Below, piece by piece: positions 4,155 to 57,842 of a DNA stretch of 64,000 nucleotides. A model generated the notes under the pieces. That model did not search any database and was not told the DNA's origin. It saw only the letters and a list, made by a program, of their open reading frames with translations. Position numbers and translations under genes: made by a program. The number at the start of each line of letters is the position of its first letter. The stretch's first letter is position 1. This DNA is from Octopus sinensis (lineage: Eukaryota): contig NC_043000.1 in assembly GCF_006345805.1 (NCBI RefSeq), positions 117,552,001 through 117,616,000 on the forward strand, written 5' to 3'.

Positions 4155-4273
4155 ATGGATACCTTCAGTGGTGACAGTTCTTTCCGCGAAATGCAAGATT
4201 CTGGAATAGATGACATATGGGAGATTCTTCAGGATGATTTTTATGAATTAAAAAGTAAAGTTGTTGTCGGAAG
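4155..4273 (+). CDS. Mitf: MiT/TFE-family transcription factor, first coding exon (MITF-A/TFE3-like N-terminus)
   Basis: Manual translation: MDTFSGDSSFREMQDSGIDDIWEILQDDFYELKSKVVVG+AG. The xSGI...(F/Y)YELKS motif matches the N-termini of MITF-A (MQSESGIV...YYELKSQ) and TFE3 (ESGIV...FYELKSQ), compared from memory. ATG context catcATGG, in-frame TGA at 4065, donor AG|GTAAGA at 4274 (phase 2). Second in-frame ATG at 4191. Confidence 0.9.
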
Positions 4274-4441: not shown

Positions 4442-5972
4442 ATATATATACAAATAATGTGTGCATATATGAGTGATTATATATATATATATGTGTGTGT
4501 GTGTATATATATACAAATAATGTGTGTATATATGAGTGATTATATATATATATGCGTGATTATATGTATGAGTATATATATATATGATTATATATATTTT
4601 ATGTATACATGATGTGTATATATATATATATGAATGAATATACATGTATATATAAGTATATATGTATATAATATCTTTCATATATATGTGTGTATTTATG
4701 AGTGAATATATATATTTATATATATATATAATGTGTATATATATATGAGTGAATGTATATGTTATATCTATATGGACAACTGACTGATTTATATGTATTT
4801 GTATATATATATTATGCGATTACATTGTATGTATGTATATATATATATATTATAGATATGTATATATTATATATATATGTACATAGGTGTGAGCTGACTC
4901 TCACATAAGCAAATTAGTCCTTACTAAAACATTATGATCTTTCTATGAATCAGTTGGTCTAATAAAACGGTTAATTTATTTTGGTAGCCTTCACCTTCTT
5001 AGTGATTCCGTAGTCAAACAGAATCATCTGTAAGGATGATCGAAAAATTTATTTGTTTTAATAGAACGCAATAAAGGATCGTTGGAATTGATACTACAAA
5101 GATCGAGCGAATAGTGTCATCGATTTAGTTTGGTACGGAATTCTCTACAAATGATTATAGCGGTGGCGGAGCGGAGCGAAAGAGCTTTTTATTGTTAGTT
5201 ATCCATTCCGTCACACTTATTGTTTACGATGATCAGTTTCACTCGTAAATTATATTTAGAAAAAAAAAAAAAACCCTAAAATACATCAGAAGCAAGCCAA
5301 GTGTCGGAATTTATTTGAAATAATAACGATAATTCCTTTAAAAAAAATCATTCGATAATTCCTCTAACCATCTGTTTTCCCTCTATTGTTTAAACCTCGA
5401 TATTGGAAAATCATTCCTATGTTCTTCATATATTCCGACGTATACCAGCAAATCCTAGTTTCTCCCCAATTTATGAATACATATATAACTATATCTGATG
5501 TTGTTTTTCAATATTTATTTCTCATATGTAATATATGTGTTTTTCTTTTCCATTCTAGTCCGTATTATTATTATATTACATACTGCCTATCAATAATATA
5601 TTATTTCCAACCAGCAGGTATTACGTCACTTCCCCGCTACAAAACTGCTGTCTCTTTTCGCACTGACATTTCCCATTCTTAACACCACACAGATTTCAGT
5701 AATGATAAATAATAACGACCACGATTATTATTATTATTATTATTATTATAGTTGTTTATTATTTTTATTCGATATTCTCTTATTCTTTTACACTTTTTTT
5801 TAGTCATTTGACTGCGGCCATGCTGGAGCACCGCCTTAATTATGTTTTTCACTTGGGTTGTCAAGGTGTAAATCATTGCTTATACTCGTGTGTGTTTGTG
5901 AGTGTGTGTAGGCGTATGTGTGTGTATATACTCATATATATATAAGTAAAACAAAGGATAATTCATTCATCC

Positions 5973-7540: not shown

Positions 7541-8310
7541 GAACATTTATATCATACTGTCATCTTCTCCCTCTCCTCTTCCTCTGTCTCTGTGATTCTT
7601 TCCTGCACGCTATGTTCCTTTACTCATTGCTTGCCATTAAGCCTAGTATGTGCAGATATGCTGCTCCTTTTAACATTTACCATACTGTCATCTACTCCCA
7701 CTCCTCTTCTTCTGTCTCTGTGATTCTTTCCCTCGCACTATGTTCCTTTACTCATTGCCTGCCATTAAGCCTAGTATGTACAGTTATGCTGCTCCTTTTA
7801 ACATTTACCATACTGTTATCTACTCCCTCTCCTCTTCCTCTGTCTCTGTGATTCTTTCCCTCGCACTCTGTTCCTTTACTCATTGCCTGCCATTAAGCCT
7901 AGTATGTGCAGTTATTTCTGCTCCTTTTAACATTTACCATACTGTCATCTACATCCTCTCCTCTTCCTCTGTCTCTGTGATTCTTTCCTTCGCACTATGT
8001 TCCTTTACTCATTGCCTGCCATTAAGCCTAGTATGTGCGGTTATGCTGCTCCTTTTAACATTTACCATACTGTCATCTACTCCCTCTTCCTCTGTCTCTG
8101 TGATTCTTTCCCTTGCACTCTGTTCCTTTACTCATTGCCTGCCAATAAGCCTAGTATGTGCAGTTATTTCTGCTCCTTTTAACATTTACCATACTGTCAT
8201 CTACTCCCTCTCCTCTTCCTCTGTCTCTGTGATGCTTTCCCTCGCACAATGTTCCTTCACTCATTGCCTGCCATGAAGCCTAGTATGTGCAGTTATGCTG
8301 GTCCTTTTAA
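7541..8310. repeat. Minisatellite, six ~128-bp tandem units
   Basis: TAACATTTACCATACTG unit starts at ~7541, 7671, 7799, 7928, 8056, 8180. Confidence 0.95.
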
Positions 8311-8642
8311 AATTCTCTGAATGCTGCTATTTAACACCAGGTCAGCTTTCATTAAAAAACAAACCCTTCATCAAAGGTGTTCCTGTTATGTTCTTAACCT
8401 TCACCTTACTGCTGAGTTTCTAGCATTTGAGATCTCTGAGTTCAGTTGTTTTACATTTTTGAATCATTAGACAAAAGATTACCCACATTATCTAATTTAT
8501 CTTTGCCATATTTATAATGGCAGGGTGTACTTTAGAGGTAACTTGACTATTATTTCTAGAAGCTCAAACAATTGCATAGAAGACCCTCCCATTCCTTGTC
8601 AATGCCATTGTCTCTCCTTTAGTATTTCTTATTCAACTACTT

Positions 8643-8964: not shown

Positions 8965-9064
8965 NNNNNNNNNNNNNNNNNNNNNNNNNNNNNNNNNNNN
9001 NNNNNNNNNNNNNNNNNNNNNNNNNNNNNNNNNNNNNNNNNNNNNNNNNNNNNNNNNNNNNNNN
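8965..9064. other. Assembly gap (100 N)
   Basis: Exactly 100 N, a placeholder of unknown true size. Confidence 1.
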
Positions 9065-41319: not shown

Positions 41320-41521
41320 TCCTTCGCCCGAAATTAAACATGCAAATCACACTAATCGTACCAATTTGAAGCAGCAGCTTATGAAACAACAAGTTGCCGA
41401 ACAGGAACGTAAAGAATCCTTTTCTCCAGAATCTATGAAAATATACATTGACCCATCAGATTCTATTAATGTCCCCGAGCCCAAAAATGTCGGCAAAGAA
41501 GTACCGCCTCAAGTTCTTCAG
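41320..41521 (+). CDS. Mitf: MiT/TFE-family transcription factor, second coding exon (N-terminal MITF/TFEB domain, Rag-binding region)
   Basis: Branch-like CTGAC near 41289, pyrimidine tract, acceptor CAG| at 41319. The first base T completes AGT with the phase-2 donor at 4273. Translates (S)PSPEIKHANHTNRTNLKQQLMKQQVAEQERKESFSPESMKIYIDPSDSINVPEPKNVGKEVPPQVLQ, matching MITF/TFEB SRI.LR.QLMREQ..EQERRE...VP.EVLK. Donor CAG|GTATGA at 41522 is phase 0, the same position as the vertebrate VLK|VQ junction. Confidence 0.93.
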
Positions 41522-54389: not shown

Positions 54390-55007
54390 TACTATTATGA
54401 TGATGATTCTCTGTAATATTTTGAGGTTTTCAAAAAATATCAAATGGAATGGTAGTGCATAGAGACTCAGTTTTTTATGGCATTGGTTGTGGGCCATATG
54501 GGATCAAACAAAATGGGAATTTAGATTCCTTCATCATCATCATCATCATCATCATCATTGGTTAATGTCCGCTTTCCATGCTAGCATGGGTTGGACAATT
54601 TGACTGAGGACTGGCGAACCAGATGGCTGCACCAGATTCCAATCTGATCGGGCAGAGTTTCTACAGCTGGATGCCCTTCCTAACGCCAACCACTCCAAGA
54701 GTGTAGTATGTGACTTTATGTGCCACAGGCGGTACTGGCAACGGCCCACGCTCAAATGGTGTTTTTTACGTGCCACCTGCACAGGAGCCAGTCCAGTGTC
54801 ACTGGCAATGACCTCGCATGAATGTTTTTTTCATGTGCCTCCATAAAACAAAAAAAATGCAAAAACTAGATAGACTGATACTGCAGTGTGCATGTGAACA
54901 CACACACACAAACAAACAAACACACATTCAATAATGATTTAAGTTGGCTACTTTTCCATTACTTTAAGTTTCATTCTAAAATGGCAATCATTATAGTGTT
55001 TCAACAG
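54303..55007 (+). repeat. Copy 1 of a diverged local direct duplication (copy 2 at 57843-58499)
   Basis: Both run from TTTTAG.AGTAATTAAATGGAGTGGAATTTTGGAAATTTAACTAA to TTATAGTGTTTCAACAG. Confidence 0.85.
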
Positions 55008-55935
55008 AATGAATTTGGTTAGAGGGAAACTGTGTGGTAGCAGATCATTCATATATGTGCATGTGTGTCACTGTAGCTCCACCACACCACTAGAACCTAC
55101 TTTTGGTTTGTTTACATCCCTATTACCTAGCAGTTCATCAAGGGTGACTGATAGAATAACTACCACCAGACGTTTTTAAAAAAATAAGTTGTTGGGCTGA
55201 TTTGTTTGTCTAAAACTCTTCAAGGTGGTGGGTGACCCAGCATGGCCACAATCCAATGACAGAAGCAGTTAAAAGAATAAAAATGGAAGATTTGTTTGCA
55301 ATATAAATCCAGTGACTATAGTGCCATATTGGTCGTTAGTTGGAAAACCTTTGGTTCATTAATTTAAGTAAATGAAATGAACAAATGGATGAGCAGCTTT
55401 TTCATTAAAGAACAGACGCTGTGTAAAATTAAAAACACAAAAGTGAAACAAGAATAGATAAAAAAGTAAATAAATAAAAGGTCTCAAAACCCAGCTCTGC
55501 TGTTAAATTCAACAGTATTGTCCATGTTACAAGCTCTGTCTATTCTCATAGTCATCTTAACTAGTTTTCTTTCCATCATGAACTTCTGACTTCTTCCTCG
55601 CCCACTTCTCTTTCCACAGCTCCTCCCCTTTCGTTTAACTCCACCCACTCAGTGCTATCTGTTGCCTTAATCAAGAGATTTTTCACATTTATGTCCTTCC
55701 AGGTTTTAGTGAATTCTTTTCAATTGGTATAATTAACCCCACACCTAAGCTGTTTCAACACAATAGACTCAGCCAGCAGCACATTATTATTGCTTCTTCC
55801 AGTCTGTCAGCCTTATTTTTTGCCCTGCCCACTCCTAGCTTAAATCTAGTCATTATCTTAATATCATGTAAAAGGCTATATGTTCATATTAAAATTTCAC
55901 TGCCTCATATACATACATACATTCATACACACACA

Positions 55936-56001
<66 letters not shown>

Positions 56002-57000
56002 GGGAAGAGAAAGAGAGTTGTAGATGTATGTGTAAATAAGTGAATAAATATATAAATGGAAAGAAATATAACAAAAACTTTGATTCAGAATAAAATGAGA
56101 GTAGTTTTGTGTCAACCACTAGGAGAACAATAACTTTCAACAGTGGTATCCAGAACAACAAAAAGAGAACTGATATTCTAGTTTTAATCCATACACTACA
56201 TACGTTTGCACCACAAACACATGTTTTATTTGAAGTCTTCCAAATTTGGACCAAAAGTTTCATGTTTATATATATAATATGTATTTAGATGTAACGTGGA
56301 TGTGTATTTTTCCCTCCTAAATAATTCGTTAAGATTTTTGGAAGTTAAAAATTTTAAAAAGTGAGGATTACAACCAATTATGAAAATGAAAAGTTTATGA
56401 TATCTGGATAGAAAAAAAAACAATCAAGCAAAAAAAAAAAAACAGAAGCTGATGGAAAGATTTATTACATCCAAAGGTGGTCTTCCGTTTTCTGGAAGTT
56501 TCCAACAAAATGACTGCTACAAGTTGTTTACACGATCTGTTGCTATATTTTCATCTGAAAGAAAACTTTTTATCTTATGACCAGCAAGCAGTCTTTCAAA
56601 CCCAGGAAATATATGGAGTTAAAAACTATCAGTCTCTATTAAGACAGTGATTGCCAGAAAAAAAAAAAACAGAAAAAAATTAAAATAATAATAAATAAGA
56701 GAAAGAAGGAATAAAATATGACACAAAATCTAAACAGTAGCATCATGATCAAAGAAACCAAAGCAACAACAGCAAAGACTCAGCTTTAATTCTGGAACTT
56801 TAATTCTTCTCAAAACCATTTCATTTTAATTTCCTTTCCTTTATTCTTCAAATCCTCCTGATTCTACTACCTCTATTCCTTTCTGAAACGGATGCTCAAA
56901 GTGTATGTGATAAACCTTAAGGATATCTTTTTCTACCAATTTCTACCAAAGGATATTATTTTCTACCATTCCTTACTCTATTAATCTTCACTCAAGTGGT

Positions 57001-57150
57001 ATGATGGTGAACCATAACACTCATGACTATGGTTACAACTACTACTATAACCAACAAGGCTGCCACCACAACTGGCCTTACTCATGTGATTCTAACCAAT
57101 ATGCCTGTTATCCCAGTTGCCAATATGCAACCTGGACAAATGAACCTTTC
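57001..57150 (+). CDS. Candidate alternative first coding exon of the Mitf-like gene (phase 0), Tyr/Asn/Cys/His-rich
   Basis: 50 codons MMVNHNTHDYGYNYYYNQQGCHHNWPYSCDSNQYACYPSCQYATWTNEPF, then |GTAGGT and an abruptly T-rich intron-like tract. Upstream in-frame TGA TAA at 56908-56913. GC content is visibly higher than the flanks. Confidence 0.4.
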
Positions 57151-57842
57151 GTAGGTTTTGCTTACATTTTTTTCTAAAGTTCATTTCTTTTTTCTTTTAT
57201 CTTTTTCTTTGTTTTGCTTTTGTTTCTGTTTTTGTTTTGGTATAGAAACTTTTTTTTTCAAGAAAACTTATTTATTTCATCATAATGTTGTGAATGTTGT
57301 CAGAGAAATTTCTTAAATTTTTCTTCTTATTACTCTGTTCTTTGAATGTTACATAAATTAATTAGTCATTAGATATCTTTAAATTAATTTGTCATCTTTG
57401 GTTTACTTTGGTTTTGTTTCATTTCTTTGAAATCATCCTCCTTCATTTTATCATGCTTAGCTGTAATTACAGAAATACTAATTTCCAACATAGGCACAAG
57501 ACCAAACATTTGAGGGTAGCAGGTTAGTCAGTTATATTGATCACGGTACTTGGCTGGTACTTTATTATGTCAACATCCAGAGAGTTACCATCAACAAGAA
57601 TTGAAATCAAAATGCAAAAACCTGGAATAAATGCTACAAATATTTTATTTTCCACTGCTTTAGCAATTTTCTTAATCCATTGCTCCTTGGAATCAAAGAA
57701 TTAATACATGTTATCAAGTCATCACATTCTTATTTACTTTACTGAAGTAGATTCTAGAAGGCCTTAAACTTCAGATGAAAACTCCAATCATTTCACTGCA
57801 AAAGAATGTAGCATATTCTAAAAAGGGTATCATTTTAAAATG

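Follow-up and report, generated by a model that had tools for sequence, protein, structure and literature searches.

An unannotated exon in intron 2 of octopus MITF predicts an isoform without the Rag-binding-type exon

Can a gene of the MiT/TFE family in an invertebrate, of which to our knowledge there is only one per animal and which is usually seen as a TFEB-like nutrient sensor, also encode an isoform comparable to MITF-M, described as the melanocyte isoform of vertebrates? The question is raised by a locus within a stretch of 64,000 nucleotides from Octopus sinensis (NCBI RefSeq assembly GCF_006345805.1, contig NC_043000.1, positions 117,552,001 to 117,616,000, forward strand; this whole stretch is referred to as the window), in which a first-pass annotation had proposed an MITF-M-like first exon. 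The unannotated exon at 57001–57150 is real and in frame with the downstream MITF exon. It probably represents a second 5′ exon of MITF, likely with its own promoter, that is spliced to exon 3 and yields an isoform without exons 1 and 2, predicted to escape Rag/mTORC1 control and to be constitutively nuclear.

A new exon spliced to MITF exon 3

The coding part of the exon and its donor are located as follows.
57001..57150, + strand: coding part of the new exon, the 50-aa Tyr/Asn/Gln/Cys/His-rich N-terminus of the predicted MITF isoform
57151..57156, + strand: phase-0 splice donor GTAGGT, joined to G000:C4:117624644 across an intron of 15,493 nt

Part of the stretch is contained in 20 of the 24 listed sequencing runs, none of which is on record as RNA. 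Eight runs were examined, six of them RNA-like (X1, X3, X5, X7, X9, X12) and two DNA-like (X17, X18), and their contig depth values were not taken as expression levels. Contigs of runs X1 (organism A, study P1) and X9 (organism C, study P6) depart from the window at 57152, and in both the 28 letters past the departure are identical to exon 3 (L002 from 1512). Because the two letters GT are shared, the joint was placed after 57150 in phase 0, and the joined product reads EPF followed by VKTQLEHPTKY. This splice therefore fixes the Tyr-rich frame. The remaining four RNA-like runs end before the donor (at 57017, 57124, 57143, and 57145), the junction thus being seen in two of six. Since the two DNA-like runs each read across the donor in one contig and the exon has a single genomic copy, the joint is a splice, and an origin from a processed retrocopy, which was also considered, is ruled out by the same observations. 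No second copy of the 50-aa peptide exon was found in the genome, where the other two hits had expectation values (E) of 6.9 and 9.3. The donor proposed from the letters of the window is thus used, with spliced contigs under two species labels. Runs X1 and X7 have no cover past 57207; intronic contigs are present in X5 and X12.

The first-pass description of the exon agreed with the sequence in most respects. Exactly 50 codons lead from the tandem ATGs to the phase-0 donor, the second ATG has A at −3 and G at +4, and the T content, 26% within the open reading frame (ORF), is 63% over the 100 nt that follow. The ATG pair is in frame with MITF and is preceded by an in-frame stop at 56911, so that the exon has its own start codon. 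The G + C content of the ORF is 42%, compared to 28–29% in the flanks. The peptide is rich in Tyr, Cys, His, and Asn, as stated (Y 9, N 7, and H, Q, and C 4 each); it is 24% aromatic and 22% Asn/Gln, contains no Lys or Arg, and has one aliphatic residue. The combination of an ATG, at least 30 codons, and a phase-0 GT is common in these introns: intron 1 has 25 cases, the part of intron 2 inside the window 103 (for the most part in microsatellites), and the remainder of intron 2 another 4. Such geometry by itself therefore does not exceed chance. The splice junction and the conservation of the new exon do exceed chance.

The position of the exon within the gene was determined by mapping P0001 (NCBI: Octopus sinensis MITF isoform X1) exon by exon onto the genome.
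4155..4273, + strand: coding part of MITF exon 1 (39 codons plus 2 nt, ending in phase 2; P0001 residues 1–39, 100%)
41320..41521, + strand: MITF exon 2, the equivalent of vertebrate exon 1B1b and of Rag-binding type (ending in phase 0; PF15951 1–61; P0001 residues 40–107)

Exon 3 (VKTQLEHPTKY) lies outside the window at G000:C4:117624644 (window-equivalent 72644, L002:1510) and is followed by six more exons, the bHLH-LZ among them. The new exon is located in intron 2 between the Rag-binding-type exon and the VKTQLEHPTKY exon. Its position downstream of the former, as inferred in the first-pass annotation, was thus confirmed, and so was the absence of that exon from a product in which the new exon is joined directly to exon 3. 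The host gene is the single octopus MiT/TFE gene; both genome matches of PF15951 fall within it, its protein matches PF00010 as an MiT-type bHLH-LZ, and the closest PDB entries are TFEB and MITF (E 1e-43 to 1e-38). Exon 1 encodes DSGIDD (window 4197–4214), which is identical in all five cephalopod-type MITF proteins compared and presumably resembles a beta-TrCP degron. The annotated cephalopod isoforms X1 and X2 (P0001–P0004, P0008–P0010) derive from the same gene with the same downstream exons. Among those examined for the new peptide (P0001–P0004, P0009) it is absent, and all start in exon 1 or exon 2. Isoform X1 includes a 34-residue internal exon (L006, about 4597–4701) that is skipped by X2; a divergent version occurs in P0007 and P0014, and P0006 has none. 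Intron 1 contains a 128-bp tandem repeat of six copies (window 7553–8314) and an assembly gap of 100 N (8965–9064), which may hide further alternative exons.

Coding constraint on the 50-residue peptide

An HMMER search of 1.84 billion representatives with the peptide yielded three hits at E ≤ 0.001, of which one, P0015, was convincing; P0016 and P0017 are repeat proteins matched by composition and were rejected. P0015 is a genomic ORF on an 89-kb ENA contig that aligns to residues 1–50 with 39 identities and no indels. It retains all 12 aromatic residues (9/9 Tyr and 2/2 Trp among them) and 3 of 4 Cys. Upstream of the Met pair only 1 of 29 positions is identical and the flanks are unrelated; at the other end the match stops at F, followed by the V that corresponds to the codon given by the GT donor. 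Because the identity extends from the tandem Met to the donor between unrelated flanks, the peptide is under coding constraint that starts at the ATGs. As a scale, identity to P0001 is 93% for the Argonauta MITF and 75–76% for P0007 and P0014. In organism C, the 121 scorable coding nt (a scoring that leaves out the last 29 coding bases) carry no substitution, whereas the 5′ part carries 33 over 750 nt (Fisher P 0.006; the value is 0.010 when three sites common to organisms A and C are removed). A metagenome scan with alignment A1 gave 43 pattern matches, none of them confirmed, and so supplied no DNA of P0015; neither frame matched Pfam, and the ESM Atlas returned no usable hit for the peptide. 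Word-index protein searches with the peptide (89–2000 aa and 27–88 aa) gave no match either, a weak negative because P0015 was missed as well despite being in that collection.

The leader and alternative explanations

The letters upstream of the ATGs contain the following features.
56039..57000, + strand: transcribed leader portion of the new exon, likely untranslated, covered by RNA-like contigs
56078..56084, + strand: CTTTGAT match inside the X9 contig, not significant
56748..56754, − strand: CTTTGAT match inside contigs of all six RNA-like runs, not significant

The RNA-like contigs start at 56039 (X9), 56106 (X1), 56128 (X3), and 56430 (X5, X7, X12) and are broken at A-tracts. The upstream kilobase, described earlier as free of transposable elements, indeed has single-copy depth in both DNA-like runs, except at an A-tract near 56410–56442. 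High-copy dispersed repeat pieces, with a depth in the thousands in the DNA-like runs, lie just upstream of this block at 55100–55280 and 54900–55000. Across 56039–57150, contigs of four runs gave no sign of a joint to an exon further upstream; the single loose end, at 56410 at an A-tract, had no match in the window or loci. Most simply, the upstream kilobase is a long leader. Its first-pass interpretation as a TCF/LEF-type promoter stood in so far as both CTTTGAT matches are present, but the promoter reading was not supported, as the matches lie inside RNA-like contigs and their number is not significant (2 observed versus 0.38 expected; 31 of 500 shuffles reach 2, P 0.062; 18 of 200 for L001). 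A degenerate TCF motif gave P 0.49, and scans for E-boxes and TATA were not significant.

Several points weigh against the predicted isoform. The RNA nature of the runs is a guess, the runs were selected for containing the stretch, and contigs cannot reveal transcription starts. Pre-mRNA or DNA contributes to the RNA-like cover, as is evident from a further piece of run X3 at 55824–55903 and from X12 contigs in the intronic DNA to either side. Motifs for TCF, SOX, and the cAMP response element (CRE) are not enriched in 56010–57000 or 55300–55900. The leader contains 18 ATGs, and from none of them does an open frame lead in phase into the ORF. Shuffled leaders have 15.8 on average, so these ATGs are not depleted, and only one occurs in the 455 nt that precede exon 1; they count against efficient translation from the longest start. 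The origin of P0015 from a cephalopod as distant as P0007 and P0014, and its place in an MITF intron, are inferred. With regard to Rag binding, the position of TFEB S3 is Asn in octopus exon 2 and that of Q10 is Gly in the more distant P0007 and P0014, for which reason Rag binding by octopus exon 2 is itself a prediction. A last point is a possible acceptor close to the start codons.
56995..56996, + strand: acceptor-like AAG with 74% pyrimidine upstream, phase-compatible with exon 1

An alternative that is improbable, and survives best, is that the isoform is made and translated to provide a new N-terminal domain or a tissue-specific dosage, with its localisation staying nutrient-coupled, for example if exon 2 is not Rag-binding or if export signals dominate. 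The length and strong conservation of the peptide would fit this explanation, as would the partial retention of the Rag-contact positions, and according to PMC6672050 there is no in vivo evidence for a specific function of exon 1M itself. However, octopus exon 2 keeps R53, Q59, and L60 in the spacing of TFEB R4, Q10, and L11, the Rag-contact residues according to PMC3575543. Furthermore, TFEB S142 aligns with octopus S180, which is retained in the short isoform, and Rag-family genes are present in the octopus genome as two multi-exon loci (C4, C7). More compact Rag-family matches on small contigs (G000:C9495:32457-33136, C725, C9532) may be retrocopies or contaminants. The octopus exon-2 peptide alone had no TFEB match in the PDB. 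S285 (S-x-P), tried as a candidate 14-3-3 site, was a guess and was set aside, being several columns off TFEB S211 in the HMMER alignment.

It is quite unlikely that the new exon is an internal one, mutually exclusive with exon 2, in which exon 1 would be spliced to the AAG and the Tyr-rich peptide would replace the Rag exon with the degron-like motif kept. The phase 2 of exon 1 fits the AAG exactly behind its pyrimidine-rich tract, but the site is bridged unbroken, with at least 31 letters on each side, in five of the six RNA-like runs, and loose ends at this site are absent from four runs and from those listed for the others. In P0015, moreover, the Asp-Val before the Met pair cannot hold an AG at this place, and homology begins at Met-Met.

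Still less credible is that the donor is a cryptic one of the pre-mRNA, or that upstream ATGs block the transcript and make it unproductive, with the ORF left untranslated. The 18 leader ATGs, the low contig depth, the intronic cover in X5 and X12, and the frequency of the ATG-to-GT geometry are all compatible with such an origin. It is contradicted by the 39 of 50 identities without indels, confined to the ORF, by the lack of cover in X1 and X7 after 57207, and by the occurrence of the same junction under two species labels.

The first-pass annotation had also noted a second open frame (MTMV..MNLS*) and regarded the true frame as uncertain.
57023..57154, + strand: overlapping +1 frame, a by-product of peptide composition

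This frame is open, as claimed, and the uncertainty was settled by the junction in favour of the Tyr/Cys/His/Asn frame. Its openness follows from the lack of Leu, Ile, Val, and Met after residue 3, and no synonymous encoding of residues 4–50, be it of the window or the P0015 peptide, can place a stop in it. Dual coding, with a functional or co-functional Thr-rich +1 product, is very improbable despite an ATG in strong context at 57029, as the frame does not match that of MITF, meets a premature stop inside exon 3 after 110 codons in the spliced RNA, is open automatically, and has its ATGs behind two better-placed ones.

The predicted isoform and vertebrate MITF-M

In the preferred explanation, a second 5′ exon spliced to exon 3, an internal promoter in intron 2 would transcribe the new exon as a first exon, and translation from 57001 or 57004 would produce an MITF without exons 1 and 2, which would be 426 aa long or, if the 34-aa alternative exon is skipped, 392 aa. 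The loss of Rag binding would allow an escape from Rag/mTORC1 capture at the lysosome, the degron-like motif of exon 1 would also be lost, and the retained basic region could provide for nuclear residence. In vertebrates, exon 1B1b is left out when exon 1M is joined directly to exon 2A, and the resulting MITF-M, which keeps the signal in the basic region but has no retention domain, is for that reason found mostly in the nucleus (PMC6672050); according to PMC3575543, it is nuclear regardless of the Rag state. By analogy, the octopus short isoform should behave like MITF-M and stay nuclear. The 50-aa peptide is most plausibly a low-complexity activation or self-association segment, its Cys and His residues might form a putative metal-binding site, and the long ATG-rich leader might limit its translation.

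In the vertebrate and the octopus gene alike, a 5′ exon that is coding and supplies an ATG of its own is joined directly to whichever exon follows the Rag-binding one (for vertebrates, PMC6672050 and PMC3575543). It occupies the same intron according to the TFEB alignment and PF15951. Unlike in vertebrates, the octopus exon encodes 50 residues rich in aromatics, for which no vertebrate match was detected, and has a leader of about 1 kb with 18 ATGs, in which no TCF, SOX, or CRE enrichment was found. The vertebrate MITF-M promoter is driven through LEF1/TCF, SOX10, PAX3, and CREB sites, and expression of that isoform is restricted to pigment cells. Vertebrate exon 1M is much shorter than the octopus exon. 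No vertebrate MITF was among the three HMMER hits, a search in which a very short exon would escape detection. A further comparison is offered by TFE3-S and TFE3-L, where an intronic start likewise removes the degron-bearing N-terminal part of an MiT/TFE protein (PMC12852735). TFE3-S differs in that its Rag-binding domain is retained and no peptide is added, whereas in the octopus isoform the degron-like and Rag-binding-type regions would both be missing and 50 residues would be new. The conservation of DSGIDD suggests that a stability switch of the MITF-A/TFE3-L type may exist in molluscs, a degron reading based on the beta-TrCP consensus and on PMC12852735, in which TFE3-L carries an N-terminal phosphodegron.

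A search of the literature, mostly without subscription journals and without supplements, found no published Rag-less MITF isoform of a cephalopod or other mollusc in the portions available (including PMC7815692, PMC9363479, and PMC13544226). The octopus gene presents the MITF-M architecture in a form that is new and comes from an invertebrate; its conserved aromatic N-terminus is its own, and the likeness to the vertebrate architecture is likely convergent. More speculatively, the pigment cells of coleoids, in chromatophores or the ink gland, may have as their master regulator an MITF isoform that is uncoupled from nutrients, carries a new Tyr-rich activation or condensate domain, and evolved independently of vertebrates in the same intron, be it by convergence or from an MITF-M-type promoter as old as the bilaterians; this is a tentative idea. 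In abalone, MITF is an activator of tyrosinase genes (bioRxiv 10.64898/2026.01.03.697505), and by analogy a pigment role of the octopus isoform is a lead only.

The annotation of the gene is corrected by this finding, which also brings to light a conserved module of 50 residues without family match. The new exon would offer an exon-level handle, as a probe or CRISPR target, on what specifies cephalopod pigment cells. If the prediction is true, a conserved Rag-less isoform from the same intron would mean that a single octopus gene combines a lysosomal stress role with a constitutive role in differentiation.
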